The position numbers and the translations under genes were made by a program. From an uncultured Solirubrobacterales bacterium (GTDB lineage Bacteria > Actinomycetota > Thermoleophilia > Solirubrobacterales > 70-9), in NCBI GenBank assembly GCA_963837695.1, contig CAWINZ010000005.1, forward strand, positions 220,155 to 284,154: a DNA stretch of 64,000 bases, given 5' to 3'. Shown here piece after piece: positions 33,219-51,381 of the stretch. Within the stretch, counting starts at the first letter, position 1, and the number at the start of each line of letters is the position of its first letter. Under the pieces are notes generated by a model that searched no databases, had not been told where the DNA came from, and worked only from the letters and a program-made list of their open reading frames with translations.

Positions 33219-33259
33219 CGCGCCCGACAGGATTCGAACCTGTGACCTTCGGTTTCGTA
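33219..33259 (-). repeat. att repeat R1: copy of the tRNA-Arg 3' half (outermost junction)
   Basis: cgcgcccgacaggattcgaacctgtgaccttcggtttcgta is identical to 51382..51422 of the intact tRNA. Confidence 0.85.
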
Positions 33260-33389
33260 ACCCGAGACGGTGGATCGGCTGGGCTACGTGGAGCCCGGTT
33301 TCAAGCGGTTTCCGGCGAATCGAGTCCCGCTGGGATCGGCTGGAATCTGTGGGGCATGTTGCCCCATTTGTTGCCCCAGGGATGGAGAC

Positions 33390-34679: not shown

Positions 34680-35204
34680 TCACGCATCGCCCACGGTTAG
34701 CTCGGGAAGCATCTTTGAGAGAAAGTCCTCAGCGGACTTGCGAATGCGTAGATCTCCAGCTCTGAGGCAGTCGAGGACTGCCAGGATTTCACCGAGTTGG
34801 GGCCATCCCTCGACCGCCTCCGGCGCCGCAGTATGCAACGGCTCGATTGCCTGCCCCCGGACCTCCCCATGGGCGTAGGGCCAGACCGGAGGCGGCTCGT
34901 CGCCTGAGGAGCGGATCGCGCCCGCCATCGGCTCCGCCGCCCATGCCGCAGGCACGCCCGGCGTCAGTGCACCGAGCCGAGCAGGAGCAGCAAAGCGAAG
35001 TGCATGAAGCGCGAACTCCTCGAAGTGAGGGAGATGGACTTCGCGACCGTCTACTGAATACAGATCCACGCCCTTCGCTCGCTCCAGCGCACGCTGTACG
35101 ACCGGGTGCGGAACACGGAGACGCTCCGCAAGCGACCTGTAGCTCCAAGCCTCATCGTGGGCGAGCAATCCGCCGAGGACATAGATGTCGGAATTCTTGA
35201 TCAC
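34680..35204 (-). CDS. hypothetical protein with N-terminal winged-helix-like segment
   Basis: 174-aa ORF. SYRSLAERLRVPHPVVQRALERA looks like a wHTH recognition region. Confidence 0.45.
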   Translation of the reverse strand: MIKNSDIYVLGGLLAHDEAWSYRSLAERLRVPHPVVQRALERAKGVDLYSVDGREVHLPHFEEFALHALRFAAPARLGALTPGVPAAWAAEPMAGAIRSSGDEPPPVWPYAHGEVRGQAIEPLHTAAPEAVEGWPQLGEILAVLDCLRAGDLRIRKSAEDFLSKMLPELTVGDA

Positions 35205-35445: not shown

Positions 35446-35869
35446 TCAGAGCTCGACCGCCTCATCGAGAACGCGGTCGCGCATGTAGGGCGACAGGCTG
35501 GCCTCGGTGACGACATCCACCTGGACCCCAAGGCGTTCCTCCAGGTCGTTAGACAGTGCGATCAGGTCAAACAAGGTCCGGCCCTCCGCCATGTCAACGA
35601 GAAGATCGAGATCGCTGGAGGCACCATGTTCCCCACGTCCGGTCGAACCGAACAAAGCGAACGTTGCCCGCCCCGTGGGCGGTAGCAATGCGGCGCACAT
35701 CCTTCCGAATCTCCGTCAGCTCCTCGATGCGCTCGAGCTCGTCGCGGTCGAGCCCGCCGGCGCGGCGCAAGCGCTTGGCCAACTGGCGTAGTCGCTCCGC
35801 GCGGTCGTTCGTCTCCTCGATCTCGTATCCCGCCTCCGCTTTCCTGGCAAGGACATCCGACCAGGGCAT
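35446..35869 (-). pseudogene. MNT-type nucleotidyltransferase (HEPN/MNT antitoxin-like), +1 frameshifted
   Basis: The N-terminal part (..IRKDVRRIATAHGAGNVR) is in frame 35594..35869. The catalytic part (LFGSTGRGEHGASSDLDLLV) is in frame 35446..35700. The frames join if one T of the run at 35654-35656 (minus-strand TTT) is removed. Confidence 0.6.
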
Positions 35870-36142: not shown

Positions 36143-36184
36143 CGCGCCCGACAGGATTCGAACCTGTGACCTTCGGTTTCGTAG
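36143..36184 (-). repeat. att repeat R2: tRNA-Arg 3'-half copy flanked by both conserved arms (attP-like junction)
   Basis: 42 nt identical to 51382..51423. The conserved arm ~36054-36142 lies on one side and 36185-36304 on the other. Confidence 0.85.
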
Positions 36185-36317
36185 CCCGAGCCCGTGGATC
36201 GGCTGGGCTACGTGGAGCCCAGTTTCAAGCGGTTTCCGGCGAATCGAGTCCCGCTGGGATCGGCTGGAATCTGTGGGGCATGTTGCCCCAATTGTTGCCC
36301 CAGGAGGCTGATTCGGG

Positions 36318-36758
36318 TCACGATCCGGGGAGTTGGACGCACTCGAAGGCGAGGACCTCTGCGAGCTTGTCGAAGTGCGTGTCGCGGTGCAGAACCGCCA
36401 CCCCGCCGTGCTCGGCCGCCGCGGCGGCAACGAGTGCATCCGTGATGGGCACCCGGTGGTATCCGTCGCCGCGCTCGGCCAACTCGCCGACAGCGGCCAT
36501 CGCCGCGTCGGTCACGGCGCGATCGTTGCGAAGGATTCGCAGCGAATCGAGCTCGCTCTCGAGTTCGAGATACTCGGAGCTACTGCGGGCCGAGTAAAGA
36601 ATCTCCATCCGCACAATTGGTGTGATCCAGAGGCGATCGGCAAGGATTGCGTCGTCCACGAGCGAGCGAAGTTCATCGGGAAGCGAGGCGATACGCCACC
36701 ACGCCGAGGTGTCGGCGACGAAGGGCGCATCGCTGCGCAACAACTCCAAGGCGTTCAC
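36318..36758 (-). CDS. vapC: PIN-domain toxin VapC
   Basis: FVADTSAWW (first Asp), EILYSA, and ITDALVAAAAAEHGGVAVLHRDTHFD (last Asp), a typical PIN pattern. Confidence 0.8.
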   Translation of the reverse strand: MNALELLRSDAPFVADTSAWWRIASLPDELRSLVDDAILADRLWITPIVRMEILYSARSSSEYLELESELDSLRILRNDRAVTDAAMAAVGELAERGDGYHRVPITDALVAAAAAEHGGVAVLHRDTHFDKLAEVLAFECVQLPGS

Positions 36759-36765
36759 CGCGCCG

Positions 36766-36933
36766 CTACTGCTCGTGGTCGGTCAGCTGCTCAATCCGCT
36801 TGAGCACGCCGCGGTCCAACCCGTCCGGGCTTTGCAAACGCTTGGCCAGCATGCGCAGCCGCTCGGCGCGCTTCTCCTCGCTCAGCGCCGGCTTCTCCGC
36901 AGTGGGAGTCGTGCTCGGGATCGGATGGCTCAC
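36766..36933 (-). CDS. possible 55-aa antitoxin upstream of vapC
   Basis: Own codon-by-codon translation: VSHPIPSTTPTAEKPALSEEKRAERLRMLAKRLQSPDGLDRGVLKRIEQLTDHEQ. It ends 7 nt before the vapC GTG. Below the ORF-track cutoff. Confidence 0.4.
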   Translation of the reverse strand: MSHPIPSTTPTAEKPALSEEKRAERLRMLAKRLQSPDGLDRGVLKRIEQLTDHEQ

Positions 36934-37001
36934 AGAGCCAGAATAGCGCGCGAGTCCGCTACTTCAGCGCTCCCAGCAAGACTGGCCGATACCTTCTCAG
37001 C

Positions 37002-37226
37002 ATGACCACTCGCGAGAAGCTGGAAAAGCTGCTCGACCGGTTCTCCGAGGACGAGCTGTCGGCGGAGTACGCGCGACTGCGGGAAGTCGTCGCAGGAAAA
37101 CGCCCTGCCGATAACCGGGCCAATCTTGAACAGTTCAGCGCCCGCGCCTCACGCGGCGTTCTCCGCCACATGGCCGAAGACGAAGAAGCGGCGGGACTCT
37201 CCTGGGAGGAGTTCCAGCCGCGGTGA
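37002..37226 (+). CDS. possible antitoxin (74 aa) coupled to a MazF-like fragment
   Basis: Its stop overlaps the next start as GTGA (37223-37226). Acidic and helical. Confidence 0.4.
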   Translation: MTTREKLEKLLDRFSEDELSAEYARLREVVAGKRPADNRANLEQFSARASRGVLRHMAEDEEAAGLSWEEFQPR

Positions 37227-37340
37227 CACGCGGCTGGGTCTGGTGTCACGAGCCGCCAGACAAAAAGCTACGCCCAGCTCTCGTCCTCACGAGCGACGAA
37301 GCCATCAGCGTCGCCAAAAACACCCTTAATCCGACTGCGC
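37223..37340 (+). pseudogene. N-terminal fragment of a PemK/MazF-family toxin
   Basis: TRGWVWCHEPPDKKLRPALVLTSDEAI resembles the RG.iw.v......K.RPalVl MazF N-terminus. The rest of the listed ORF is antisense to the 323-aa gene. Confidence 0.4.
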
Positions 37341-37345
37341 CAGCC

Positions 37346-38317
37346 CTACTCGACCAGTCGCCGCAACTCGTCGGTAAGCCGCTGCTCAAGGTGCCTGATA
37401 GTGGAGTAACTGATGCATCTCTCACTTTGGACATCGAACTTCAGATCGGAACCGTCATGACGCAGCAGCACGGTGGGAACCTCGGCTCCCCAGGCGAATC
37501 CAACCTCCAAGTAGACATTGGGGTTGGCGTCCGTGAGATCCGCGACAACCAGCGTCGCCGAGCGGATTCTCTCCTTGATGCGTTCTGGAATGCTGCCGGT
37601 GAACGCCTGCTCGTCAATCCGCTCGCAGAGCAAGCCGCTCTTGTGCACCGCAGGTTCGATGGCATAGTGGAAGATGTCTTCGAATTCTTGTGAGAAGGGC
37701 ATCGCCACGAACGCATGGTCCCGAGTGGCGGCGGTCGCTTCCGTTGACCGGCGTAGCCCCTTTGAAATCTCGCCCGTGGAAGTGGAAGTCAGTGACCCCG
37801 TCAGGCGCGACGTGGGAATCGCTTCCTCAAGGCGGATGCGAAGCCGCTCGGCGCGCTGCTCGTCCAACTCAACGATAGAAACTCGTTTGAGACTGCCCGC
37901 GGTCCGCCCCTCAATCCCTTCGACAATCCCCGCAAGCTCCGCTTCAAAACAAGCGGCCTCATCCAATCCATAGCCGACTCCGTGCAGGGTCAGGGCCAGG
38001 TCTTGACAGTCTGGAAACTCTGCCACCGCAAGGGATACCGCCCGGCGCCCGAACAGGCGAATCTCCGTGTAGCCGAAATCCGAAAGGGGCGGCACACCCA
38101 AGAAAACCACATTAGATGGCCCTACCTTTTCGGGACTGCGCACCACTAGCTGACCTCCAGGCCGAAGGTCCATCTCTAAATCCAGTCCAAGCCGTTCCTT
38201 TGCCGCCGCATCCACGCCAAGTGAAACCTGGGCGTGCTTGAGTACGAGCACATCGGAGGTGATAGCCAAAACATCGGCCGGGTCGACGTCGATAGCCACT
38301 CCCTGCAACTCCACCAT
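37346..38317 (-). CDS. two-domain cargo protein: unknown N-domain plus nucleoside 2-deoxyribosyltransferase/TIR-like C-domain (defence-effector candidate)
   Basis: 323-aa ORF. The C-terminal HAFVAMPFSQEFEDIF...ATLVVADLTDANPNVYLEVGFAWGAEVPTVLL matches the Rossmannoid pattern F.aMPF ... aDlt..NpNV.yE.GyA.g...p. Confidence 0.7.
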   Translation of the reverse strand: MVELQGVAIDVDPADVLAITSDVLVLKHAQVSLGVDAAAKERLGLDLEMDLRPGGQLVVRSPEKVGPSNVVFLGVPPLSDFGYTEIRLFGRRAVSLAVAEFPDCQDLALTLHGVGYGLDEAACFEAELAGIVEGIEGRTAGSLKRVSIVELDEQRAERLRIRLEEAIPTSRLTGSLTSTSTGEISKGLRRSTEATAATRDHAFVAMPFSQEFEDIFHYAIEPAVHKSGLLCERIDEQAFTGSIPERIKERIRSATLVVADLTDANPNVYLEVGFAWGAEVPTVLLRHDGSDLKFDVQSERCISYSTIRHLEQRLTDELRRLVE

Positions 38318-38402
38318 AGACGGCAGCTTAATCGGTTCTGGATACCCCTGGACCTTTCACTGGATTGTTCCCGGTCGCACACCACAGCTTTACCGCGAGC
38401 GT

Positions 38403-39629
38403 TCAAGACCAAAACGAACCTCTCGCAATGGCGCATTGCGAGACCATTTCCAACGGCGGCGCCTCGTCGCCCGGCAGCAGATGCGTGTAGCGGGTCAGCG
38501 TGAAGGCGGGCGAGTGGTGGCCGAGGGCTCGGCTCAGTTGGAGGAGGTTGGTGCCTTGGCTGAGGTGGAGCGAGGCGAAGGTGTGGCGGAACGTGTGGAA
38601 GCCCGCCCAGGGGGTGCCTGCCTCCTCTGCGAGGGGCTTCAGGACGCGGCGACGGAGGTTGCCCGGGTCGAGCGGGCCTCCGGCTTCGTTGGGGAAGGCG
38701 AGGGCGGTCGAGTCCCGGTCGGGCTGGGCGGCGAGATGGTCGCGCAGGCTCGCCGCCACTGATGCCGGTAGGCGGACCTCGCGTCGGCCGTGCCTGCTCT
38801 TGGGCGGCTCGATCCGCTCGCGGACGATCGCTCGGCGGATGCAGACCTCGGGCTCTGGGCCGTCAAGTTGAAGGTGCAGGCGTTGGAGGGCGATCGCCTC
38901 GCTGATCCGCAGGCCGCAGCTCGCCAGGAGCTCGAAGAGCGGGCGGTGGCGCTCGGGGGCTGTCGCCAGGAGCGCTGAGAGCTGCTCGCGGCTGAAGACC
39001 TTGATCTCCTCGCCCTCGTCCTCGAGCCGCTCGCGCTGGGGCAGCGCGAGGCCCTGAGCGGGGTTGTGGCGGATCAGGCCCTCGCGCTTGGCGGTCGCCA
39101 GGGCGGCGCGGATCGGTATCGCGACGTTGGCGATCGTGCGGTCGCTGAGGCGCTTGCCCTGCTCCTGCTCGTCGGCGAGCCAGTCGAGGAAGCGGGCGAG
39201 CTGGTAGGCGCTCAGCTCGGTGAGCTTCAGCCTGCCGGAGAAATAGCGGCGGGCGTAGATGCGGATCAGGCGCCGGTATTCGTCGCGGGTGTTCTCGCGG
39301 AAGCCCCGGCGGCCCTGGCCCCGATAGCGCTCGACCCACTCCTCCAGGTAGCGCAGGAAGGAGATCGTCGTGCGCTCCTGCAGCTCGCCGCGGTCGCGGT
39401 CGGTCTCGCTCTCGCGCTTGATCCGCTTTGCCTCCTCGTAGGTGCGGGCGCTGCGCTTGCGCTGCCTGCCGGCGCTGCGGAAGACGCAGACGTAGCCGAT
39501 CACGTCGCCGCCGGCGCCGAGCCGCTTGAAGACGCCTGGCGTCTTGGTCTTCTGGAGCCGCCGCTTGTCACCGCAGCCTGGACCGGCCGCAAGGGCCGAC
39601 GTATCCTGGGAAACGCTCATGAGCATCAC
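38403..39629 (-). CDS. int: tyrosine recombinase / phage-type integrase (element E2)
   Basis: The C-terminal catalytic region has GLRISEA, HTFRHTFAS and GHHSPAFTLTRYTHL (R..HxxR..Y). Confidence 0.9.
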   Translation of the reverse strand: MMLMSVSQDTSALAAGPGCGDKRRLQKTKTPGVFKRLGAGGDVIGYVCVFRSAGRQRKRSARTYEEAKRIKRESETDRDRGELQERTTISFLRYLEEWVERYRGQGRRGFRENTRDEYRRLIRIYARRYFSGRLKLTELSAYQLARFLDWLADEQEQGKRLSDRTIANVAIPIRAALATAKREGLIRHNPAQGLALPQRERLEDEGEEIKVFSREQLSALLATAPERHRPLFELLASCGLRISEAIALQRLHLQLDGPEPEVCIRRAIVRERIEPPKSRHGRREVRLPASVAASLRDHLAAQPDRDSTALAFPNEAGGPLDPGNLRRRVLKPLAEEAGTPWAGFHTFRHTFASLHLSQGTNLLQLSRALGHHSPAFTLTRYTHLLPGDEAPPLEMVSQCAIARGSFWS

Positions 39630-39740
39630 CTCGTGAGCCGGGGGCGGGCCGTTAGCGCGGCGCCGCCCCGTTTTGCGTTGTCGGACAAGACGTTAACAGG
39701 AAGATGCGGCCTGTCAGCCTGCTCCAACGATGGAGAGATG

Positions 39741-39812
39741 GGTTCGCTATGGGGTTCGCACTGCGGTTCGCACTGTAGTTCGCACTGCGGTTCGCACTGC
39801 ACTTCGCATGAG
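39741..39812. repeat. six tandem 12-bp repeats (consensus gGTTCGCACTGc) upstream of int
   Basis: Units read directly: ggttcgctatgg, ggttcgcactgc, ggttcgcactgt, agttcgcactgc, ggttcgcactgc, acttcgcatgag. Confidence 0.85.
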
Positions 39813-40008
39813 CCGATGCCGAAACCGAGGCAAAGCCGCATTGGAAGAGGCTTTGCGGCGACCACGCTTTGCTGACTTCTATATGTCGAACTAGCTTCTT
39901 TCCAGATTCGCTGTCGGTTGCCCTCGGGCTCGCGGTCCGTCCGCGTCCGTCAGCCTCGCCGTGGCTCTGCTGATCTTCGCCTGCCGGTCCCCCCGGCGCG
40001 GCTCGTTG

Positions 40009-40305
40009 TCACTCGCCGCGGGTCTGTGCGTCGCTCGACGGCGGGCTGTCGATCTCGTAGCGCCCGTCCCCCGTTCCGACGAAGCTCGGCCTGTAGGAGA
40101 TGCCGTCGAGCAGCTCGGCGGGCGAGACCGAGAGCGCGCCTGCGAGTCTGACGACGACATCCAGGGTGGGGACGTTGATCTGCCGCTCGTATTTCCGGAC
40201 GGCGTCGCGGCTGAGCGAGGCGCGGAGCGCCAGCCCTTCCTGGGTGAGACCCGCACGCTTGCGGAGGCCGATCAGGTTCTCGGCGAAACGGGCCTGGAAG
40301 CTCAC
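40009..40305 (-). CDS. XRE-family helix-turn-helix regulator (second of two)
   Basis: ORF 40009..40371 trimmed to the GTG at 40305, which overlaps the upstream stop as GTGA. FAENLIGLRKRAGLTQEGLALRASLSRDAVRKYERQ is an HTH_3 pattern. Confidence 0.7.
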   Translation of the reverse strand: MSFQARFAENLIGLRKRAGLTQEGLALRASLSRDAVRKYERQINVPTLDVVVRLAGALSVSPAELLDGISYRPSFVGTGDGRYEIDSPPSSDAQTRGE

Positions 40306-40591
40306 GGCGCCTGCTGCGGATCGTCCACCTCGAAGCGGCCCTCCACGACCTCGACGTGTCCGGGCGTCCACTTGAAGCCGGCGAGGAGGTCGCCCACGGG
40401 GACCGAGACAGCGCCCGCGAGCCTGACGATCGTGTCGATCCTCGGCGTCCGCGCTCCCCGCTCCAGCAGCCCGATCGCCGTGCGATGGAGCCCGGCCCGG
40501 TAGCCGAGCTCTTCCTGAGAAGCCCAGCCTGCTCGCGGCAGCGGGCGAGGTTGCGGCCGAACTGGGCGGCGACCTCGGCTGAACGCTTCAA
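40302..40591 (-). pseudogene. XRE-family HTH gene with a -1 frameshift (identical lesion in the sister copy)
   Basis: FGRNLARCREQAGL is in one frame and SQEELGYRAGLHRTAIGLLERGARTPRIDTIVRLAGAVSV is in the next. The junction is at ~40514-40525 and the length is 290 nt. The TTG start overlaps the upstream stop as TTGA. Confidence 0.55.
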
Positions 40592-40977
40592 AGGAGAAGG
40601 CCCTCGGGCACTTCGGCTGGCCCGCCCTTGACCAGCGTGGCGACGATCACGCCGCTGCGGCTCGTGTGCCCGCCCTCGACCGTCCAGCGGTCGCTGATCT
40701 GGCCCGCCGTGAGGACCGGCATGCCGCCGCGCAGCTCCTCGACGTCCCGCCCAGAGCGACCCGCGGGCACTTCGATGAGGCAGGTGGCGCATCTCCAAAG
40801 CGACTGCGGCCGGTCGGGGTCGACCACCGGGAACTCGACCCGCAGGAGGGTCGTGCGCTCCCCGGCCGGATTGCGGCCCTCCTGGGGGTCGGCGCTCAGC
40901 CTGCCGGTGAGGACGGCGTGGTTGATCGCCGGAGGGGTCGATGCGGGCCCCGGCGCCCGGTGCTCTGCGGGACTCAT
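40588..40977 (-). CDS. SSB-like OB-fold protein
   Basis: INHAVLTGRLSADPQ..R.....ER..LLRVEF resembles the N-terminus of single-stranded DNA-binding proteins. Confidence 0.55.
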   Translation of the reverse strand: MSPAEHRAPGPASTPPAINHAVLTGRLSADPQEGRNPAGERTTLLRVEFPVVDPDRPQSLWRCATCLIEVPAGRSGRDVEELRGGMPVLTAGQISDRWTVEGGHTSRSGVIVATLVKGGPAEVPEGLLL

Positions 40978-41378
40978 GCCGAGCCCTGGCGGGTGCGGAG
41001 CTCGAGCAGCAGCTCCGTGCCCGTGTCGAGAGTGAGGTGATAGCGACGGCGGCTAACTTCCTCGTCTTCGCGGGATTCGCGCTCGTCCGGTCGCTCGGTC
41101 AGCGCGCCCCTGGCGTCGGCTCGCAAGCGCTCGAAGATCGCGGCCAGCTCCCCGGACGGGATCGTCAGCGGGATCTCGGAGCGGTCATCGGGACCCCAGC
41201 CGAGGTCGTTGAGCAGACGGAAGTCCTCGGCGAACTCCCTGGCGAGCCGCCCGGCGGTGTCGAAATCCCCGCGGTCGATCGCTATCCGGACGTCTCCGAG
41301 GGCGCCCAGGTGTTCAACAAGGAACCCGTAGACGGCGTCTCGCTTCTCGCCCGTGAGAGTGGCGGTCGGGTGGTGCAT
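40974..41378 (-). CDS. hypothetical 134-aa backbone protein, first gene next to att
   Basis: Good RBS (GGAAGGAGA). Clearly diverged paralogue of 50665..51069. Confidence 0.6.
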   Translation of the reverse strand: MHHPTATLTGEKRDAVYGFLVEHLGALGDVRIAIDRGDFDTAGRLAREFAEDFRLLNDLGWGPDDRSEIPLTIPSGELAAIFERLRADARGALTERPDERESREDEEVSRRRYHLTLDTGTELLLELRTRQGSA

Positions 41379-41690
41379 GGCGTCTCCTTCCGGTCGGGCA
41401 CCGAAAGAGCCGCCAGGGATGCCGCCGTCAGAACGCCACGGCGGTACCGTCTCTCTCGCATCGAAGGCTCGTACTTCGGTGCCGGCCCCGGGGCGTTAGC
41501 GCGCTGCCGGGGCGCTTCTTATTCGCGTTTGCGCGGCGAACGTAGGTGGACCGGGAACCCAGCGCAAGGCCTGGGATCGAACCTCACTCCGACCTCATGT
41601 TGCCCCAGGCGTTGCCCCAGCGGCAATCTCGCACTGTTCGAGTGACCCTCGAAAAGCCGCAATCCCGCTTCACAAGCGGGATTGCCGGAG

Positions 41691-41732
41691 CGCGCCCGAC
41701 AGGATTCGAACCTGTGACCTTCGGTTTCGTAG
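41691..41732 (-). repeat. att repeat R3: tRNA-Arg 3'-half copy flanked by both conserved arms
   Basis: 42 nt identical to 51382..51423. The arm 41596-41690 is identical in layout to 51287-51381. Confidence 0.85.
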
Positions 41733-41896
41733 CCTGACCCCGCAGACCCGCTGGGCTACGTGGAGCCCGGATTCAAGCGGTTTCCGGCGAATCGAGCTAC
41801 GTGGAGATCGGCTGGAATCCGTGGGGCTGCTTGCCCCATTTCTTGCCCCAGGGACCGAACGGAGTTAGCTTCGTCCCTGGCCGATACCATGAGGAC

Positions 41897-42085
41897 ATGG
41901 CTCATGCCACCAAGGCAGATGAATCCGTCGCCAAGCGCCGCCGCGCGGCGGCTGAGGAGATGCGCGGCATGTTTGCCCATGTCGCTCCCGGGGTGAGCTT
42001 GGCAGACGAGCTAATCGCCGACCGTCGAGCCGAGGTCCGCTCAGAAGAGCGGGCAGAGGCCGAGCGGCGACGTGCCAACGGCTGA
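41897..42085 (+). CDS. possible VapB-type antitoxin (62 aa)
   Basis: ORF 41801..42085 trimmed to MAHATKAD, because the upstream part lies in the att arm. Overlaps the vapC start. Confidence 0.45.
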   Translation: MAHATKADESVAKRRRAAAEEMRGMFAHVAPGVSLADELIADRRAEVRSEERAEAERRRANG

Positions 42086-42494
42086 GACCCCGGCGTCGAT
42101 TCTCGACGCCTCAGCACTGCTCGCCCTGCTCCAAGATGAGCCAGGAGCCGCCGCGGTGGTCGAGGCAATCGAAGCTGGCGCCGCCATCAGCACCGTCAAC
42201 CTCTCTGAGGTGCTGGCCAAGCTGGCCGAGCGAGGAGAGCATGTGCGGTCGACTATGGCCACGATCGGGCAAGCCGTCGACCAGGCCGACGGCGGGCTTC
42301 GGATCGAGCCCTTCACGGAAGAGGACGGCATCGAGGCCGCAGACCTCCGACCACGCTCAAAGAGCCAAGGCCTGTCCTTCGGCGACCGGGCGTGCCTCGC
42401 CCTGGCCGCCCGCTTCGAGGTGCCGGCGGTCACAGCGGATGGAGACTGGGCCGACCTGCCGAAAGTCGGAGTCGCCGTCAAGCTGATCCGGTGA
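42072..42494 (+). CDS. vapC: PIN-domain toxin VapC
   Basis: ILDASALLALLQDEPG (first Asp), NLSEV, and SFGDRACLALAARFEVPAVTADGDW, a typical PIN pattern. Confidence 0.8.
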   Translation: MPTAETPASILDASALLALLQDEPGAAAVVEAIEAGAAISTVNLSEVLAKLAERGEHVRSTMATIGQAVDQADGGLRIEPFTEEDGIEAADLRPRSKSQGLSFGDRACLALAARFEVPAVTADGDWADLPKVGVAVKLIR

Positions 42495-42751
42495 CCGACA
42501 CCCGCTCGCGAAAATCGGCTAACCGGGAAAAGACCCTTGGACCGACCCACGATCCCCAGCCTGGTGACTTCGACGCCGAACTTGACCACCCCCGCCCCGA
42601 TCAGATTGAGATCCACAAGGGCAACCCCGACGCAAAGCTCTCGATCCTCGTCAGCGTCGAGGGCGACGACGCCAAGCGCCTAGAGCGAATCGCCACCGAG
42701 CGCGGCCAGCAACCCGGCGAGGTCGTCTCCCGGCTCCTACGCAGCGCCTGA
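42491..42751 (+). CDS. small protein with ribbon-helix-helix-like C-terminus
   Basis: GTG at 42491 overlaps the vapC stop as GTGA. The C-terminal DDAKRLERIATERGQQPGEVVSRLLRSA is CopG/RHH-like. Confidence 0.4.
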   Translation: MTDTRSRKSANREKTLGPTHDPQPGDFDAELDHPRPDQIEIHKGNPDAKLSILVSVEGDDAKRLERIATERGQQPGEVVSRLLRSA

Positions 42752-42787
42752 GCCTTCCAAAGAGCTTCGGATGCGACCGGCAGCAGT

Positions 42788-42940
42788 CCCGACCTGTGAC
42801 CTTCGGTTTCGCACTTGGACGGTCCGATTCGTAGCCCGAGCCGGGGGATCGGTTGGGCTACGTGGGGCGCGACTTCAATCGGTTTTCGGTCGATCGAGTC
42901 CCGCTGGGATCGGTTGGGCTACGTGGGGCATGTTGCCCAG
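42788..42940 (-). repeat. degenerate att plus arm (R4)
   Basis: cccgac[deletion]ctgtgaccttcggtttcg, then an 18-nt insertion, then cgtagcccgagcc..ggttgggctacgtgggg..catgttgccc. Recognisably related to R1-R3 plus the arm. Confidence 0.55.
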
Positions 42941-43099
42941 TGCGTGCTCGGCCGAGCTTTGGCTCTGCTGCCCTTCGAGCCACACGGATAGGTCCGCCCC
43001 AGTCAGGAAATCAGCGTGTGAGGTCAAGACAGGGCTCGGATGCAAGGCACGAGATCAATGTAGTGGCGGCCGGCGCCGGCAAGCGCGTCGACTGGCCAG

Positions 43100-45247
43100 C
43101 TAAGCCGCCAGGGACCAGAGATTCCAATCTCCGGCCCCCTTCAACTCTAGCTTGCCCATTTTGGCCCAGTCGAAATCGTGGGCGTTGATCCTGACCCGAT
43201 CATCCGTTACCACCAGGTTCGGCCGCGCCTGATCGCAAATGCGAGCCGCGACGTCCACATCGCGGCCGCGGAGATTTCCGAATTGATCCTTTCTCGCCAC
43301 ACCTTTGGTGAGGCCGGCCCGCGCCACGAGCTTGTCGCTGCCCGGATCAATGACCAAGTCCCTAAGGCACTTGATCGCAGCCATCGGCTCCTCAAATGCA
43401 AGAAGAAAGCCGTCTCCCGTGTCGTTGATGCGCATGCCCTTGTATTTCTTGAGGAGGCTGCGCATGCGCTTCTCGTGTGCGTTCCACTCCAGGGCATAGG
43501 CTTTCTCACCAAGCCGTCCCTTCGCATCCGTTGCACCGGTGAGATCGGTGAACGCGATCACCGTCTCCACCTCTTCAGTGGATGCAAGATCTGAAGCGTC
43601 GTAGGACCGCGAGGCTACATAGGTGATGAACTGCGATTTGTCCGCCCTTCCTTTCGCCGACAGGTTGTGGAAGGACTTCACACTGCGAAACCCCGACTCT
43701 TCAAGCAAGCCGACAAGCTGTTTGCGTTTGAACGGCAGCACGTCGAACGTCCCGACTGGCTTTCCGCTGCTTGAGCGGATGTACTCAAGCGTTAGGACGT
43801 CGTTGTCGATACCGGGCAACTCTGGCATGCTCTTCGGTCGCGCCCGAATCGTGTTGCTGCAGTAGACCACGCGTCCCGGAAAGCGAAAGTCCGGCTTCGC
43901 CATCTGCCGACGCTCGTCGAACATCGTCGGGTAATTGCGCTCATCGACGATCAACAACCCTTCCGGTCGCAGTAGGTAGGCAAAGCGCGTCAGAACCGCT
44001 CGCACGTCGCTGACCGTGCGCAGGCAGCTCAACGAGTTGCCCAAGGCTAAAAGTATGTCGAAAGTCTCTGGCTCGGCCAGATGCTCAAAGTGGCGCCAAT
44101 CAAAGCGGGTCAGGCTGAGGGGCGACCCGCCTTCCCGCTCCGAAAGCTCGGTCGCATGTGCGATCAGCCTCGCATCGATCTCGTTCGAGACAACCCGGTG
44201 CCCTTTGGAAAGCAGGTACGCCGAATCGCAGCCGACCCCGGTGGCGGCGTCGAGGACTGTCGCCTGAGCGAGGCCAATTTCCTCGATCCTGGCCTCCACG
44301 AACGGGCCCAGTTTGGTTACCCTTCTTTCAGGCGCAACAAACTCGTCCCAGACGTCTGCGAGTAGCGGCTCGAACATGCTGTCGAGGCTCCAGAGGATGT
44401 GCTCCTGCAGATCCGTTGGCACGTCGTCGGTAACAATCGTGTCATTGTTGAGGCTGACCAGTTCCGCTTGTTCGACGAGGCGGGCCACGTATCGCAGATA
44501 TGCCCGGAACCTGTCATCGAAGGGGTAGACAAGCTCCAAACGCAATCTGTTGTTGTTCGGCTTGACGTTTTCCTCAAAAAGCAGTGCGCAGGTGTTCACC
44601 CACAGGCCGAGATCACCGGTCCACTCTTCGTTCAGGACAGCATCGTGAATCAGCGCGTGCTTCTGGGGCTCGATGCACAGAGGGGTGATGTGGTGCCGTT
44701 TGTGCTCTTGAAAATATCGCCTGGCAAGGTCCGGATTACTGTCGAAATCCGCCTGCAGCGCCTTTACGGATTGGGGGATGATTCTCACGGACCTGGGAGC
44801 GTGGCACTCATGATGCGCAACAGTTGAAGAGAGATCGTCGTGGTCCTCGGGATCGCCCTCTGCGAGGTTGCCAAGCAGAAAGGGGTGGACCTGGAGAAAG
44901 CGACTCGGTGGGTGCGAGTCCACCCCGATGTAGATGTCTTGGATGGTGCTGTAGAACAGCGAGACGACGGCCTCCATCTGGTGGAGCGGAATCCGGATCT
45001 CCTGCTGTGCAGGGATGGCGTCGCCTTTCCCTCTGAGCAGGTCGACGAGCTGCTGCCCTGAGTTATCGAGGAACGCCTCCATGATCTCCTCTGCGACTCG
45101 CTGGTCATGGGCGATGGGACGCCGTCGCCCATTGGGAATCTCGATGCCGAGCTTCGACAACAGTTCAATGAACCGGAGCTCCAGTTTGGAGGAAGATTCT
45201 TTGTCTCGTCGAGAGTCAGACATAAAACACAGAAGTTCGTTTACCAA
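43100..45247 (-). CDS. three-module fusion protein: unknown N-domain, GNMT-like class I SAM methyltransferase, class III nucleotide cyclase
   Basis: MTase motifs: VLDAATGVGCDS, VVSNEID, FDILLALGNSLSCL, RPEGLLIVDERNY. Cyclase motifs: VIAFTDLTGAT, INDTGDGFLLAF, ARAGLTKG, GRDVDVAARI, ELKGAG. The listed start is TTG; the ATG at 45223 (MSDSRRDK) is the likelier start. Confidence 0.85.
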   Translation of the reverse strand: MVNELLCFMSDSRRDKESSSKLELRFIELLSKLGIEIPNGRRRPIAHDQRVAEEIMEAFLDNSGQQLVDLLRGKGDAIPAQQEIRIPLHQMEAVVSLFYSTIQDIYIGVDSHPPSRFLQVHPFLLGNLAEGDPEDHDDLSSTVAHHECHAPRSVRIIPQSVKALQADFDSNPDLARRYFQEHKRHHITPLCIEPQKHALIHDAVLNEEWTGDLGLWVNTCALLFEENVKPNNNRLRLELVYPFDDRFRAYLRYVARLVEQAELVSLNNDTIVTDDVPTDLQEHILWSLDSMFEPLLADVWDEFVAPERRVTKLGPFVEARIEEIGLAQATVLDAATGVGCDSAYLLSKGHRVVSNEIDARLIAHATELSEREGGSPLSLTRFDWRHFEHLAEPETFDILLALGNSLSCLRTVSDVRAVLTRFAYLLRPEGLLIVDERNYPTMFDERRQMAKPDFRFPGRVVYCSNTIRARPKSMPELPGIDNDVLTLEYIRSSSGKPVGTFDVLPFKRKQLVGLLEESGFRSVKSFHNLSAKGRADKSQFITYVASRSYDASDLASTEEVETVIAFTDLTGATDAKGRLGEKAYALEWNAHEKRMRSLLKKYKGMRINDTGDGFLLAFEEPMAAIKCLRDLVIDPGSDKLVARAGLTKGVARKDQFGNLRGRDVDVAARICDQARPNLVVTDDRVRINAHDFDWAKMGKLELKGAGDWNLWSLAA

Positions 45248-45414
45248 ACTGGCGGAGTTGCGGCAATCTAACGCATGAAGCCGACGACCACACGTCTGCG
45301 AATGGCCTCAGGCCTATCTAAGCCAGCGCATCACTCAGCTTGGCGCGGCAAGGATGGACGCGGTCTGCTTAACACTTAGCCAAGGCCACAAGTTGCGGCT
45401 GATCCCTCGGAAGA

Positions 45415-47415
45415 TCAATTTTTATCCTCGCTGGTTGCCGGGGCAAACCAGTGCCGCAGGGTCCGCCTCACACGCGGGGTTAGATTGGCGGCAAGCCAGG
45501 CGCGAGCAACCAAGAAATTCCAACCGGTCACAAGGCTGACGACGCCGCTGAGGGTAAGGAGGAACACAAGTCCCGAGCCGAGGGGAACTAGCTTTGACCA
45601 CGATGAGGGAAAGAGGCCCTGGGCGGCTGCGGCACAGGCGGCGATAAGCAGCAAGAGGGCGAATCCAAAGGCCGTCCACGAGATCGCGGAAGCCAACTGG
45701 TCGGCACGAGCGTCGAGACGGTCGGCGTGGCGGGTGGCGACGCGCTCGGCCCGCGCAGCCTCGGCGCTCGCGCGATCCTTTTCGGCCGCTACGGCGGCGT
45801 CGGAACGCTTGCGAAGCGCTCGCTCCCGCTTAAGCTCGTCCTCCACCTCCGCCCGCGCTGCCTGCTCGGCACGACGAAGAACCTCAGTGATGGTGCCAGC
45901 AGCGACAGCCTCAACGTCGCCGTCGGTGGCATTCATCAACTCGAGGCGGGCATCAGGCGAGAACAGCAGGAGACCGACCTGCTCCTCGCTAAGCTCGCCG
46001 CGCTCTTGTAGACGGCGGATCTCGGTCAGGTATTTGCGCCAGACATCCTCAGGCGGATTCAGGGCCGCATAGCTGATTGCGATGATCTGCCGACGAGGAA
46101 GATCAGAGGCTTGCGATGGGTTCATCAGCCAGACGATTGCGGCAAGGCTGTAGTCAGACATGCAGACCGGCACTGAACGGTGCCCGAAAATCTCGGCGAA
46201 GAAGGCGCGAGAGACGTGAGCTAGCGTGGTGTTGGTCGTAACAAGCAGCGCGTCGGCGCTCTCGATGTGGCGGCGAACCTCACCGCTGCGAAGCCGATAG
46301 ATCGCAGCCAGGGAGTCGAGATCCTTGACCATGGTGCCGTGAAGACGGTAGTGGACGCCATCTTTCAACGCCCTTCCCAACTCCTTCTCCGAAAGTTCAA
46401 TCTCTTCCGTGCGCTCGGGCGTGCCGACAACTTCGATCGCACGAGCGTCGAGCCGTTCGCTGAGCGCCGCGATGTCCATCTCGACATCGCTGCGGCTTAG
46501 GCTCTTCGACGCGAAGTAGTCGACCACATCGCCAGGGACATGGTCCTTCTTTCGTCCGGTGCGGTAGGTAGCAGCCGCGCCATCGAGGACTCCCTCGACC
46601 TCATGCAGGGTGTGCTCGAAGATGCGCAGCTTGGCGTCCTCTCCCGCCAGCAAGTCAACCAGTTCTTCGACCGGCTCCCTGTACTGCTCCTCGGCGTATC
46701 CCAGTGCGCGCAGAACGACTGGCGTATCGAGGTAGACCTCAACATCGGACAAGCGAGCACGGCCACCCGAGAACGTCTCCGGCAGAAAAAGAACGTTGGC
46801 CAACATGGATCCCTTGACAATCGTCGCCAAGTACTCGAAGGCCTGCGGCTCCTTGTGACAAAGATCGAGGACGAACCGACTGGTGACAACCGCGCCCTCG
46901 GACTCGATCTTAGGCAGCTCGACGACCGGTTCGCCGTCCACCACCGCGCCAAGTACCGGCTCAGCGAGAACCTCGACGTAGCCGAGTAGGGCCCGCTCAG
47001 CCTGCTCCTCGCTCCACTCGCGCCCCACGCCAGCAGCGAAATCGACCAGGAGGCCAACCAGATGGTTGTGCTGGCGGACAACATCTTCCCGCTCGGAGCC
47101 GAGGTCGAACTCGCGCAAAGCCTCCGGAATGCGTTCATAGGCACCGTGGCGACGACGAAGCAACCCATCGCGGGACATGCGGCCAAGGATCGTCTGCAGG
47201 GCACCCTGCGGGATGTGAAGGCCGAAGTCGCTGGCAACCAAAGCCTTGGTGTCGGGCAACGAAATCTTCTCGTGCTCCCCGCGGCGAATGCAGTCAGCGA
47301 CAATCGGGACGAAGTTGGCTATGTAGTCCTTGTCCTCATCCCAGTTGACCTTGATCACGGCCAAGGCCGAAATCGCCTTGAGAAGATCCACTGGAAGCAC
47401 GGCGGGCGCACTCAT
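45415..47415 (-). CDS. 666-aa protein of unknown function with Ala/Arg/Glu-rich coiled coil and two C-terminal TM helices (effector candidate)
   Basis: Long clean ORF in lower-GC DNA. The C-terminus has AISWTAFGFALLLLIAACAAAAQGLF and LVPLGSGLVFLLTLSGVVSLVTGW. Confidence 0.8.
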   Translation of the reverse strand: MSAPAVLPVDLLKAISALAVIKVNWDEDKDYIANFVPIVADCIRRGEHEKISLPDTKALVASDFGLHIPQGALQTILGRMSRDGLLRRRHGAYERIPEALREFDLGSEREDVVRQHNHLVGLLVDFAAGVGREWSEEQAERALLGYVEVLAEPVLGAVVDGEPVVELPKIESEGAVVTSRFVLDLCHKEPQAFEYLATIVKGSMLANVLFLPETFSGGRARLSDVEVYLDTPVVLRALGYAEEQYREPVEELVDLLAGEDAKLRIFEHTLHEVEGVLDGAAATYRTGRKKDHVPGDVVDYFASKSLSRSDVEMDIAALSERLDARAIEVVGTPERTEEIELSEKELGRALKDGVHYRLHGTMVKDLDSLAAIYRLRSGEVRRHIESADALLVTTNTTLAHVSRAFFAEIFGHRSVPVCMSDYSLAAIVWLMNPSQASDLPRRQIIAISYAALNPPEDVWRKYLTEIRRLQERGELSEEQVGLLLFSPDARLELMNATDGDVEAVAAGTITEVLRRAEQAARAEVEDELKRERALRKRSDAAVAAEKDRASAEAARAERVATRHADRLDARADQLASAISWTAFGFALLLLIAACAAAAQGLFPSSWSKLVPLGSGLVFLLTLSGVVSLVTGWNFLVARAWLAANLTPRVRRTLRHWFAPATSEDKN

Positions 47416-47614
47416 AACGCGCGCCCTCTTGCCGCGACGATGCGCTCGCTAAAGCTCACACGACCCCTTCCCGCCTTCAAGGCACAGACCCTCCCCGAAT
47501 GTCATTTTTCCCAGGCAGCCAGGCTACGCGGCATCAGGACTTCGAGCGTTCTCGTACCTGCAATTTCCGGTACTTAATTGATCCGGTCCCGACGCTCTGC
47601 GACGCCAAACGCAG

Positions 47615-48829
47615 TCAAGGCTCTTCGCCACGGCGTCGGTGCGACAGATCGAGCGCCGGCGCCTCGTCGCCGGGCAGCAGATGCGTGTAGCGGGTCAGCG
47701 TGAAGGCGGGCGAGTGGTGGCCGAGGGCTCGGCTCAGTTGGAGGAGGTTGGTGCCCTGGGCCAGATGGAGCGAGGCGAAGGTGTGGCGGAACGTGTGGAA
47801 GCCCGCCCATGGGGCGCCTGCCTCCTCTGCGAGGGGCTTGAGGACGCGGCGACGGAGGTTGCCCGGGTGGAGCGGGCCTCCGGCCTCATTGGGGAAGGCG
47901 AGGGCGGTCGAGTCCTGATCGGGCTGGGCGGCGAGATGGTCGCGCAAGCTCGCCGCCACCGATGCCGGTAGGCGGACCTCGCGTCGGCCGTGCCTGCTCT
48001 TGGGCGGCTCGATCCGATCGCGGACGATGGCGCGGCGGATGCAGACCTCGGGCTCGGGGCCGTCAAGCTGAAGGTGCAGGCGCTGGAGGGCGAGCGCCTC
48101 GCTGATCCGCAGGCCGCAGCTCGCCAGGAGCTCGAAGAGCGGGCGGTGGCGCTCGGGGGCTGTCGCCAGGAGCGCTGAGAGCTGCTCGCGGCTGAAGACC
48201 TTGATCTCCTCGCCCTCGTCCTCGAGCCGCTCGCGCTGGGGCAGCGCGAGGCCCTGAGCGGGGTTGTGGCGGATCAGGCCCTCGCGCTTGGCGGTCGCCA
48301 GGGCGGCGCGGATCGGTATCGCGACGTTGGCGATCGTGCGGTCGCTGAGGCGCTTGCCCTGCTCCTGCTCGTCGGCGAGCCAGTCGAGGAAGCGGGCGAG
48401 CTGGTAGGCGCTCAGCTCGGTGAGCTTCAGCCTGCCGGAGAAATAGCGGCGGGCGTAGATGCGGATCAGGCGCCGGTATTCGTCGCGGGTGTTCTCGCGG
48501 AAGCCCCGGCGGCCCTGGCCCCGATAGCGCTCGACCCACTCCTCCAGGTAGCGCAGGAAGGAGATCGTCGTGCGCTCCTGCAGCTCGCCGCGGTCGCGGT
48601 CGGTCTCGCTCTCGCGCTTGATCCGCTTTGCCTCCTCGTAGGTGCGGGCGCTGCGCTTGCGCTGCCTGCCGGCGCTGCGGAAGACGCAGACGTAGCCGAT
48701 CACGTCGCCGCCGGCGCCGAGCCGCTTGAAGACGCCTGGCGTCTTGGTCTTCTGGAGCCGCCGCTTGTCACCGCAGCCTGGACCGGCCGCAAGGGCCGAC
48801 GTATCCTGGGAAACGCTCATGAGCATCAC
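47615..48829 (-). CDS. int: tyrosine recombinase / phage-type integrase (element E3b)
   Basis: Differs from the E2 integrase by six substitutions plus a different C-terminal tail. Confidence 0.9.
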   Translation of the reverse strand: MMLMSVSQDTSALAAGPGCGDKRRLQKTKTPGVFKRLGAGGDVIGYVCVFRSAGRQRKRSARTYEEAKRIKRESETDRDRGELQERTTISFLRYLEEWVERYRGQGRRGFRENTRDEYRRLIRIYARRYFSGRLKLTELSAYQLARFLDWLADEQEQGKRLSDRTIANVAIPIRAALATAKREGLIRHNPAQGLALPQRERLEDEGEEIKVFSREQLSALLATAPERHRPLFELLASCGLRISEALALQRLHLQLDGPEPEVCIRRAIVRDRIEPPKSRHGRREVRLPASVAASLRDHLAAQPDQDSTALAFPNEAGGPLHPGNLRRRVLKPLAEEAGAPWAGFHTFRHTFASLHLAQGTNLLQLSRALGHHSPAFTLTRYTHLLPGDEAPALDLSHRRRGEEP

Positions 48830-48940
48830 CTCGTGAGCCGGGGGCGGGCCGTTAGCGCGGCGCCGCCCCGTTTTGCGTTGTCGGACAAGACGTTAACAGG
48901 AAGATGCGGCCTGTCAGCCTGCTCCAACGATGGAGAGATG

Positions 48941-49012
48941 GGTTCGCTATGGGGTTCGCACTGCGGTTCGCACTGTAGTTCGCACTGCGGTTCGCACTGC
49001 ACTTCGCATGAG
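48941..49012. repeat. six tandem 12-bp repeats (same array as 39741..39812)
   Basis: Identical sequence at an offset of 9200 nt. Confidence 0.85.
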
Positions 49013-49070
49013 CCGATGCCGAAACCGAGGCAAAGCCGCATTGGAAGAGGCTTTGCGGCGACCACGCTTT

Positions 49071-49723
49071 GCTGACTTCTATATGTCGAACTAGCTTCTT
49101 TCCAGATTCGCTGTCGGTTGCCCTCGGGCTCGCGGTCCGTCCGCATCCGTCAGCCTCGCCGTGGCTCTGCTGATCTTCGCCTGCCGGTCCCCCCCGGCGC
49201 GGCTCGTCGTCACTCGCCGCGCGTCGCCCCCATCCGGCTCCGACGCGGTTTCCGCTGGGGTTTACCCAGACGTTGACACCGGGGTTGCCCGTGCGGTTGA
49301 CACAGCCGATCGACCGGGGACGTGCGAAGCCGCCTGTGGCGCGGCGTTGCGACGACTCCCGTTCGCTGACATCTATTTGTCGAACCGATCAAGCGGGAGG
49401 CCTGCCAGCGGCAGTCAGAGCGCTTCGTTGCATGCTCGTCTTGCGGCTCGTTTCGTGGCTCGTTTCGTAGCTCGTTTCGTAGCTCGTTTCGTAGCTCGTT
49501 TCGTGGCTCGCACGAACCGGAGTCGGTGGCGGCGCAAAGTCGCTTGCCATCTGGCATTGCGGCCGTGCCGCTTCGCTGACATCTATCTGTGGAACTAGCT
49601 TCTTTCCAGATTCGCTGTCGGTTGCCTCAGGCTCGCGGACCGTCCGCGTCCGTCAGCCTCGCCGTGGCTCTGCTGATCTTCGCCTGCCGGTCCCCCCGGC
49701 GCGGCTCGTTGTCACTCGCCGCG
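49071..49723. repeat. ~150-bp direct repeats (49071-49221 and 49575-49723) bracketing a ~350-bp insert absent from E2
   Basis: Both copies align to the single E2 segment at ~39871-40021 (gctgac.tctat.tgt.gaactagcttctttccagattcgctgtcggttgcc...). Confidence 0.8.
49445..49516. repeat. second, different 12-bp tandem array ((g/a)GCTCGTTTCGT x5 plus one degenerate unit)
   Basis: Units read directly: ggctcgtttcgt x2, agctcgtttcgt x3, ggctcgcacgaa. Confidence 0.85.
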
Positions 49724-51376: not shown

Positions 51377-51381
51377 CGGAG

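Follow-up and report, generated by a model that had tools for sequence, protein, structure and literature searches.

A macro-fold domain fused to an NDT/TIR-like domain: a candidate ligand-gated immune effector carried as exchangeable cargo at a tRNA-Arg gene

Results

The gene and the element that carries it

The window analysed here is a stretch of 64,000 nucleotides from an uncultured Solirubrobacterales bacterium, and the subject of this study is a gene on its minus strand (37346–38317; ATG start, TAG stop at 37346–37348) that encodes a protein of 323 amino acids. Structure prediction indicated that the protein joins a divergent macro-fold domain to a domain of the class shared by nucleoside 2′-deoxyribosyltransferases (NDT), DNPH1 and TIR proteins. 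Our preferred reading, which is tentative and falls slightly short of an even chance, is that the macro domain, on binding an ADP-ribose (ADPR)-type ligand, would gate an NADase-type N-glycosidase that serves as an immune effector.

A first-pass annotation of this DNA, made from the letters alone, had taken the open reading frame (ORF) for a real gene, and this was borne out. An identical protein is encoded in an ENA metagenome contig, and at least 1,259 homologues (E ≤ 1e-3, counted as clusters at 90% identity) were found, almost all of 300–340 amino acids and covering the whole query. The gene is under purifying selection. Relative to the copy on the contig of a sister element (ENA ERZ25039483 contig_5335, hereafter L001) it differs at 8 nucleotides, all 8 synonymous and none non-synonymous, where about three-quarters of neutral changes would be expected to alter the protein; by a rough estimate, the chance of none in eight is about 1e-5. 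As had been noted, the gene is lower in GC than its surroundings (0.594, compared with 0.701 for the neighbouring integrase gene and about 0.695 for the window outside the elements described below), and the same holds for GC at third codon positions (0.679 versus 0.895 for the integrase).

The 42-nucleotide 3′ end of the tRNA-Arg(ACG) gene (51381–51455, minus strand; ARAGORN, Rfam) occurs four times, at 33219–33260 (with one mismatch), 36143–36184, 41691–41732 and, inside the tRNA gene itself, 51382–51423. These attachment (att) cores sit inside longer direct repeats, that at 36143–36184 inside one of 251 nucleotides. It follows that tRNA-Arg(ACG) has served as the integration target for a tandem array of three elements. 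The first, E1, is an apparently decayed remnant of about 2.9 kb that carries no integrase. The second, E2, spans 36184–41691 (5.5 kb) and carries the gene; one of its boundaries is the att core at 36143–36184 and the other that at 41691–41732 (both plus strand and exact matches), the latter being also the start of the third element, E3 (41732–51382). The tyrosine integrase gene of E2 (int; 38403–39629, minus strand; PF00589, E = 2e-16, with a SAM-like N-terminal domain) lies on the same strand as the gene under study and 85 nucleotides upstream of it.

E2 and E3 share their backbones and differ exactly downstream of int, and the gene occupies the same slot behind int as the cargo of E3, as the first-pass annotation had proposed. 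Positions 38454–40024 of E2 and 47654–49225 of E3, which hold the integrase and an array of 12-nucleotide repeats, are 98% identical, and 39849–41738 and 49553–51429 are 88% identical (blastn). Homology breaks at 38454, 17 codons short of the end of int, the integrases being 98% identical up to that point, and the adjoining segment 36305–38453 of E2 has no counterpart in E3 (blastn). A putative terminator-like hairpin with a T-rich tail (38421–38443, minus strand; consensus scan) lies in the last int codons, just upstream of the gene; because it lies beyond the homology breakpoint, it probably came with the cargo cassette. A consensus scan, of a kind ill-suited to a high-GC host, detected no sigma-70-like promoter ahead of the gene. 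Against L001, the core at 36800–38400 was 99% identical, int and the nearby PIN gene about 90%, and the regulatory half about 80%. The cassette would therefore be younger than the backbones, and the pattern suggests a recent exchange of the cassette or a sweep.

A C-terminal domain of the NDT/TIR class

The AlphaFold2 (AF2) model of the full-length protein (pLDDT 85, pTM 0.84) comprised two alpha/beta domains and, between them, a linker predicted with low confidence (residues 169–199; 37721–37813, minus strand; pLDDT 45–58), which is variable and gapped in the family alignment. Residues 200–323 (37349–37720, minus strand) were assigned by AF2, Foldseek and PADLOC to an NDT/DNPH1/TIR-like Rossmannoid domain of the N-glycosidase type, and the model of residues 195–323 had a pLDDT of 90. 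Foldseek returned CtNDT, DNPH1, BcmB, SfSTING-TIR, SpbK, SARM1 and AbTir at similar scores. The TIR matches (SfSTING-TIR, SpbK, SARM1 and AbTir; E 3e-4 to 1e-3) were interleaved with the NDT matches, though CtNDT, DNPH1 and BcmB were placed slightly above them. As modelled, the domain is a member of the NDT/TIR Rossmannoid class, and the fold leaves the choice of branch undecided.

Profile searches gave a consistent picture. Pfam PF05014 matched residues 243–297 at 19.4 bits, below its gathering threshold of 28.8, and matched weakly in 24 of 32 family members (best E = 2e-5). The PADLOC model PDLC00733, a CBASS 'Effector TIR', matched the protein at E = 5e-13 and all of the 32 members (best E = 3e-14), and was its only significant sequence-level relative in the defence libraries; the match covers model positions 258–363 of 388, the C-terminal part, and the N-terminal regions differ. 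The Pfam models TIR, TIR_2, ThsB_TIR and CAP12 matched neither the protein nor any of the 32 members. The first-pass assignment of the C-terminal ~120 residues as NDT/TIR-like thus agrees with the Foldseek, PF05014 and PADLOC results.

The domain carries the motif D-x-T-x(4-5)-N-V-x-x-E-x-G, with its Glu at the catalytic position of NDT, DNPH1 and MilB-BcmB. A profile search of the PDB gave a marginal match to MilB (E = 0.08) that puts Glu271 (codon 37505–37507, minus strand) on the MilB catalytic Glu, and hhalign placed ADLTDANPNVYLEVG on DNPH1 AEVTQPSLGVGYELG, with Glu271 on E104, in an alignment that covers the central 34 columns only and uses a DNPH1 sequence entered by hand. Glu271 is therefore the putative catalytic residue. 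The C-terminal motifs quoted in the first-pass annotation are all present, and the Glu of its YLEVG motif is Glu271, kept in 96% of 179 members; N267 is kept in 97% and W276 in 96%. Conservation of this motif argues for catalysis. Position 203, in strand beta1, was equated by eye with the beta1 active-site Tyr of NDT and DNPH1, which is hydrogen-bonded to the Glu; among the 179 members it is occupied by Phe (93%) or Leu (6%), and never by Tyr. This Tyr confers 2′-deoxy specificity in NDT and DNPH1, whereas NADase TIRs have Phe or Ala there (PMC11204291). The Phe, together with the TIR fusions described below, would favour NAD+ as the substrate.

The same sensor-effector logic could operate on another substrate, the C-terminal domain being an N-glycosidase like DNPH1, MilB and BcmB, acting on (d)NMP, (d)NTP or modified nucleotides, that would starve phage replication of nucleotides. 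The best sequence matches are to nucleotide N-glycosidases (the MilB profile, PF05014 and DNPH1 by hhalign), the slight Foldseek lead of CtNDT, DNPH1 and BcmB points the same way, and the highest-ranking viral match (25% identity) is to a phage enzyme labelled 'CMP/hydroxymethyl CMP hydrolase'. We nevertheless regard a nucleotide substrate of this kind as decidedly unlikely: the Tyr of 2′-deoxy specificity is replaced by Phe or Leu (PMC11204291), the strongest E-value belongs to the CBASS 'TIR' effector model, and the obligatory pairing with an ADPR-type binding fold, with the TIR fusions, points to NAD+/ADPR chemistry.

A divergent macro fold at the N-terminus

Residues 1–168 (37814–38317, minus strand) were predicted to form a divergent macro domain, as found by AF2 and a Foldseek search against the PDB. 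The matches included the macro domains of macroH2A1.1, PARP14, PARP9, MacroD1 and Af1521 (E 3e-6 to 2e-4, TMt up to 0.72), the best being macroH2A1.1 (E = 3e-6, TM 0.70, rmsd 3.2 Å), as well as SauMacro and viral macro domains, among them viral protein-ADP-ribose hydrolases. On this model the domain is a macro fold, a three-layer alpha/beta/alpha arrangement, and the first-pass guess that the N-terminal part is 'macro-like' was right at the level of the fold. Pfam Macro did not match the protein at E ≤ 0.1, nor the 32 members at E ≤ 0.01, and neither phmmer nor the family profile found a macro domain in the PDB by sequence. Both fold assignments thus rest on AF2 and Foldseek, since the PDB sequence searches were blank for the N-terminal domain and gave only the marginal MilB match for the other.

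The near-invariant residues of the domain are D15, K27, G34-x-D36, Y83 and H112-G-x-G-Y/F-G-L-D119-E120. Across the 179 members, Y83, G113 and L118 were conserved in 100%, K27, H112 and D119 in 99%, E120 in 98% and D36 in 97%. The predicted ADP-ribose loops and adenine Asp motifs (D15, G34-x-D36 and H112-G-x-G-Y-G) appear to lie at the expected places. Near-invariance of the loops is more in keeping with a pocket for a small molecule than with a sensor of phage proteins, which would evolve fast.

A macro domain could also act as a de-ADP-ribosylating hydrolase that reverses the action of an ADP-ribosyltransferase of a phage or other mobile genetic element (MGE) on host protein, DNA or RNA, with the NDT-like domain binding nucleotide or regulating; in this it would be akin to DarG or to orphan antitoxin-like enzymes that phages encode. 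Such an enzyme would fit with K27, H112, D119 and E120, polar residues that are near-invariant, and with the Foldseek matches to the hydrolytic macro domains MacroD1, SauMacro, Af1521 and viral protein-ADP-ribose hydrolases. However, a purely regulatory role sits poorly with a C-terminal domain whose catalytic-type Glu and motif are kept in 96–97% of members; no ADP-ribosyltransferase partner recurs across the loci; and the Asn residues of the canonical MacroD 'NAAN' motif are replaced by K27 and Q30, in an alignment judged by eye. We hold de-ADP-ribosylation to be very unlikely.

Fusion partners of the macro-NDT dyad

A search of 1.84 billion representatives with the macro domain only found 704 proteins at E ≤ 1e-3, 491 of them at E ≤ 1e-10. 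Most share the macro-NDT architecture of about 320–350 amino acids, and some carry the dyad, as one unit, together with further domains. TIR_2 precedes macro and NDT in six proteins (P0220, P0284, P0310, P0327, P0332 and P0341), and SEFIR and TIR_2 together in another (P0344). CHAT precedes macro and NDT in P0290, macro is followed by Hsp70 and CHAT in P0312 and preceded by Hsp70 in P0295, and a Ser/Thr kinase is fused to macro, in part with NDT, in P0317 and P0349. EAD7 precedes macro and NDT in P0257 and P0338 and lies between them in P0353, and EAD1 precedes them in P0274. In some of these proteins the NDT-like part comes from a motif scan or was inferred; PF05014 at E ≤ 0.01 matched none of P0220, P0310, P0338 and P0317. 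The contexts of P0257, P0284 and P0338, which sit on short contigs or among ordinary genes, were uninformative.

EADs are recruiters of effectors (PMC7159879), and EADs, TIR domains, caspase-like peptidases and kinases are stock parts of NTPase-centred conflict systems (PMC7159879, PMC8195603). The DrHyd and Macro domains are counted among the effector domains that process NAD+ and ADPR (PMC7159879, PMC8195603). As read from the sequences, the fusion partners are the strongest evidence here that the dyad may be an immune-type effector module.

Distribution of the family and its neighbours

Relatives at 40–47% identity were found in 444 of 185,579 species (one genome per species), in Actinomycetota, Acidobacteriota, Chloroflexota, Planctomycetota, Verrucomicrobiota, Bacteroidota, Cyanobacteria, Proteobacteria and others. 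This patchy, cross-phylum spread suggests horizontal transfer. Integrase-linked copies occur in the window and L001, and at two further loci. In L012 (10001–13492, Paractinoplanes), an integrase close to that of the window (E = 1e-121) lies 1.1 kb from the homologue, and in L059 (9387–11737, Acidobacteriota) an int fragment, the homologue and the 3′ end of tRNA-His follow one another. Together with the TIR, SEFIR, CHAT and EAD fusions, these copies place some members of the family in mobile or defence-type contexts. A PDC-M21A-like gene in the element next to E2 (described below) also speaks for such a setting. No conserved partner gene was found: the largest neighbour family, a generic ABC transporter, occurred within 6 kb in 7 of 86 loci. 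Since no neighbour is conserved across these loci, the gene does not behave as a metabolic deoxyribosyltransferase in a conserved metabolic neighbourhood. A TIR ORF was found within 10 kb in 4 of the 86 loci with a TIR hidden Markov model (HMM), and none in the window.

At three loci, representing at least two lineages, a KptA/Tpt1 gene directly adjoins the homologue (L014 4869–5540, L005 5348–5899 and L057 3773–4360), in L057 on the same strand with a 4-nucleotide overlap, and RtcB adjoins it in one further locus. KptA/Tpt1 is an NAD+-dependent RNA 2′-phosphotransferase. These neighbours may link the family to NAD-dependent RNA-end chemistry, and they raise the alternative that the protein is a non-immune accessory enzyme which clears NAD-derived by-products (ADP-ribose-1″-phosphate, ADPR>p or ADPR), for example from RNA end processing of the KptA/Tpt1 type. 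On this view, phosphatase or hydrolase activity would reside in the macro domain, and the nucleotide would be broken down or recycled by the NDT-like domain. The predominance of ordinary metabolic genes among the neighbours would agree with such a role, as would the strong, enzyme-like conservation of both domains, and KptA, macro and 2H domains have been linked in RNA-end repair (PMC9503650). The KptA link, however, is seen in only 3 of the 86 loci, the relatives are few and patchy across phyla, and fusion to TIR, SEFIR, CHAT and EAD domains and carriage on integrase-bearing elements would be unexpected for a clean-up enzyme. We judge a clearing role to be unlikely, though it deserves some weight.

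Other cargo of the tandem elements

Besides the gene under study, the E2 cargo segment contains a VapB-like/PIN pair and a MazE-like gene followed by a truncated toxin gene, so the description of the cargo as a single gene stands only with the toxin-antitoxin genes set aside. The VapB-like (36766–36933) and PIN/VapC (36318–36758) genes form an intact pair (36318–36933, minus strand; PF01850, E = 5e-13). The MazE-like antitoxin gene (37002–37226, plus strand; 74 amino acids) has lost its intact toxin; it has 97 homologues, which are normally followed by a PemK_toxin gene. In L088, L090, L091 and L092, the MazE-like gene is followed, with a 4-nucleotide overlap, by a PF02452 PemK_toxin gene of 103–105 amino acids. 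The frame that opens at the GTG at 37223 in the window corresponds to codons 1–31 of the L088–L092 toxins at 61–65% identity (blastp), and marks a MazF/PemK remnant (37223–37315, plus strand; the first 31 of about 104 codons) convergent with the gene under study.

DNA homology to these toxins ends at about 37299–37315. The toxin gene has therefore lost about two-thirds of its length where the 3′ end of the macro-NDT gene lies. That a MazF fragment is truncated there had been recognised in the first-pass annotation, but its end had been set about 6 nucleotides from the stop codon; the clear break, at about 37315, is 30 nucleotides away, and weak similarity may reach about 37339. The identity of the remnant was settled through the antitoxin homologues and their downstream genes. 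A direct homologue search with the 42-residue fragment found none, Pfam gave no match at E ≤ 10, and tblastn on the fetched loci found L001 only. Against L001 the remnant shows 5 amino-acid changes in 41 codons, unlike the macro-NDT gene. An intact MazEF/PemIK type II toxin-antitoxin system was rejected, as the antitoxin is intact and the toxin retains about 31 of about 104 codons. The reading frame of the truncated mazF meets no stop for 156 codons (37223–37693, plus strand) and runs antisense through the 3′ third of the macro-NDT gene, and transcription from a mazE promoter would converge on that gene. In L091 the order is mazE-mazF, two unrelated minus-strand genes and int, so the slot between int and mazEF is again variable; PADLOC gave no match for the cargo genes in the equivalent slot of L091 and L092.

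The cargo of E3 downstream of int measures 5.8 kb and includes genes for proteins of 666 and 715 amino acids. In the equivalent slot (43100–47415, minus strand), the 666-residue protein had a marginal NOV_C match only, and the 715-residue protein has a class I methyltransferase domain. The name 'cyclase pair' given to this cargo in the first-pass annotation found weak support, from a marginal Guanylate_cyc match (E = 0.005) in the 715-residue protein only.

Further features were noted in the window. Identical arrays of about six 12-nucleotide tandem repeats (GGTTCGCACTGC-like) lie at 39729–39820 and 48929–49020, some 100 nucleotides upstream of each integrase gene, and may be where a recombination or regulatory protein binds. 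In E1, the element next to E2, PADLOC matched a 174-residue protein (34680–35204, minus strand) to the candidate defence family PDC-M21A (E = 3.6e-28), and an MNT-like nucleotidyltransferase gene (35446–35700) adjoins the gene for this protein. A 59-nucleotide copy (97%) of the 3′ part of tRNA-Ser(TGA), the gene for which lies at 59746–59836, occurs at 60941–60999 and probably marks the distal att site of a further integrated element. An Rfam scan of the window found tRNAs only.

Discussion

A candidate ligand-gated N-glycosidase

We propose that the protein may be a self-contained sensor-effector directed against phages or MGEs, its gene being exchangeable cargo of a small integrative element at tRNA-Arg. 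The macro domain would bind an ADP-ribose-containing small molecule, either free ADPR or an ADPR conjugate or derivative that arises from NAD+ during infection. The bound ligand would alter the oligomeric state or conformation of the protein, and this change would switch on the NDT/TIR-like domain, which, through Glu271, would break the N-glycosidic bond of its substrate, most likely NAD+. The substrate pool would be drained and growth of the infected cell would stop. In TIR-fused relatives, the N-terminal TIR domain may make the ligand, giving a Thoeris-like pathway in one polypeptide, and in EAD-fused relatives the dyad may be recruited as the output of NTPase-based systems.

There is precedent for both halves of the proposal. 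In type II Thoeris, the TIR protein makes ADPR, IAD or His-ADPR, which the macro domain binds, and the macro domain oligomerises (PMC11204291; bioRxiv 10.1101/2024.01.03.573942). TIR-STING, TIR-SAVED and DUF4062 proteins are TIR-like NADases switched on by assembly. A macro receptor followed by a C-terminal effector also mirrors PDLC00733, with its sensor N-terminal and its effector C-terminal. Direct support exists for the two folds, the conserved residues, the purifying selection, the position as mobile cargo and the fusion partners. Both domain calls of the first-pass annotation, at the level of folds, and the mobile context it described have held up, the single-gene cargo has done so only in part, and the defence role remains a proposal.

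Several points weigh against a ligand-gated immune NADase. We infer the function of the macro-NDT family throughout, and with it the identity of the ligand, the substrate, the gating and the defence phenotype. No ligand-making partner is conserved among the 86 loci, and the window holds no TIR ORF. At 84 loci the genes next to the homologue are for the most part ordinary metabolic ones, and defence matches among them are few, so the usual defence-island signal is weak. The Pfam Macro and TIR models are without a match, and PF05014 stays below threshold. NAD+ can be put forward only as a presumed substrate, because the fold search cannot split NDT-type from TIR-type enzymes, and the equivalence of Phe203 with the Tyr was placed by eye, as hhalign covered the central columns only. 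Finally, the macro domain could be catalytic instead of a receptor.

A variant of the proposal dispenses with a cognate synthase. Here the dyad would be a free-standing receiver and executioner for NAD+-derived danger molecules, sensing ADPR or its conjugates from other immune NADases (TIR, SIR2) or from phage ADP-ribosyltransferases and NAD-salvage enzymes. Its own activity would add to the destruction of NAD+, and the ADPR that it releases might feed back positively on it; the TIR-macro-NDT relatives would combine signal maker, receptor and effector in one polypeptide. We consider this variant speculative and, on balance, doubtful.

Comparison with known systems

The preferred reading, a macro sensor gating an NADase-type effector, is close to type II Thoeris in its parts. 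There, too, a macro domain receives ADPR-type molecules that a TIR protein makes from NAD+, and oligomerises when they bind; the active site of one ThsB subfamily resembles that of NDT and DNPH1; and the TIR-macro-NDT fusions of the present family hold the same three kinds of part. ThsA, however, is a transmembrane-macro effector, whereas the output domain of the protein studied here is itself an NDT/TIR-like enzyme, and the ThsA macro structures were not among its top Foldseek matches. The AF2 secondary-structure map, made without a dedicated transmembrane-helix prediction, showed two globular alpha/beta domains and a linker only. The PADLOC ThsA and ThsB models matched neither the protein nor the 32 members. 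Type II Thoeris was rejected, as there is no ThsB beside the gene, no TIR ORF in the window and no ThsA/ThsB match.

The TIR effectors of CBASS and Pycsar (PDLC00733; TIR-STING, PDB 7un8; TIR-SAVED) share a homologous C-terminal domain and the combination of ligand sensor and NADase-type effector, but their sensors are STING, SAVED or cNMP-binding domains rather than a macro fold. The domain order of TIR-STING and TIR-SAVED also differs from that found here. CBASS was rejected, as no CD-NTase or cyclase partner recurs among the 86 loci. The NDT/DNPH1/MilB-BcmB class (PF05014, clan Nribosyltransf), which is the 'DrHyd' of PMC9503650, PMC7159879 and PMC8195603, has the Rossmannoid fold, the motif and the catalytic-position Glu in common with the C-terminal domain. 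The protein departs from NDT and DNPH1 in lying below the Pfam threshold, in the change of Tyr to Phe or Leu, in the macro fusion and in its lack of a conserved metabolic neighbourhood.

Among single-gene defences, the DUF4062 systems Evangelion (bioRxiv 10.64898/2026.06.25.731849) and Swarozyc (bioRxiv 10.64898/2026.05.01.722283), which act by NAD+ depletion and abortive infection and are often borne on MGEs, are alike in having a TIR/NDT-like core with an aromatic residue in beta1 and a catalytic Glu, plus an auxiliary domain. Their auxiliary region is variable and senses phage proteins (portal), whereas that of the present family is a conserved N-terminal macro fold. DUF4062 was rejected because PF13271 matched neither the protein nor the 32 members. 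An NDT-fold effector that hydrolyses NAD+ is also reported for Retron-Eco1/Ec86, which is said to need a reverse transcriptase and msDNA. A retron was rejected: reverse transcriptase neighbours are not conserved among the 86 loci, and Rfam found no such non-coding RNA in the window. DarTG likewise places a macro domain (DarG) in a mobile conflict module, but DarG neutralises a separate toxin, DarT, whereas the macro domain here is fused to an N-glycosidase-type domain; DarTG was rejected, as no DarT-like partner is conserved among the 86 loci. These five systems were excluded because their defining partners or domains were searched for and not found. The protein would work most like a sensor coupled to a TIR-like-NADase effector, outside CBASS, Thoeris, retrons, DarTG and DUF4062.

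Significance

TIR-like and NDT-like NADases coupled to sensors are an established theme of bacterial immunity. Only in type II Thoeris is a macro domain known as the signal receptor, there acting on a membrane effector; the present family, which is widespread, directly pairs a Pfam-invisible macro fold with an NDT/TIR-like enzyme. A literature search for named macro-TIR or macro-NDT fusions found none, although an earlier in-silico mention is possible (Burroughs et al. 2015 lay outside the coverage), and no annotation describing a macro-NDT family was found. The locus is a clean case in which near-identical integrative elements, lined up at a single tRNA gene, have exchanged the contents of their cargo slot. 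If the macro domain does gate the enzyme, the family would represent a new receptor-effector pair for NAD+-based immunity, and a simple one-protein system in which to ask which ADPR-type molecules signal infection.

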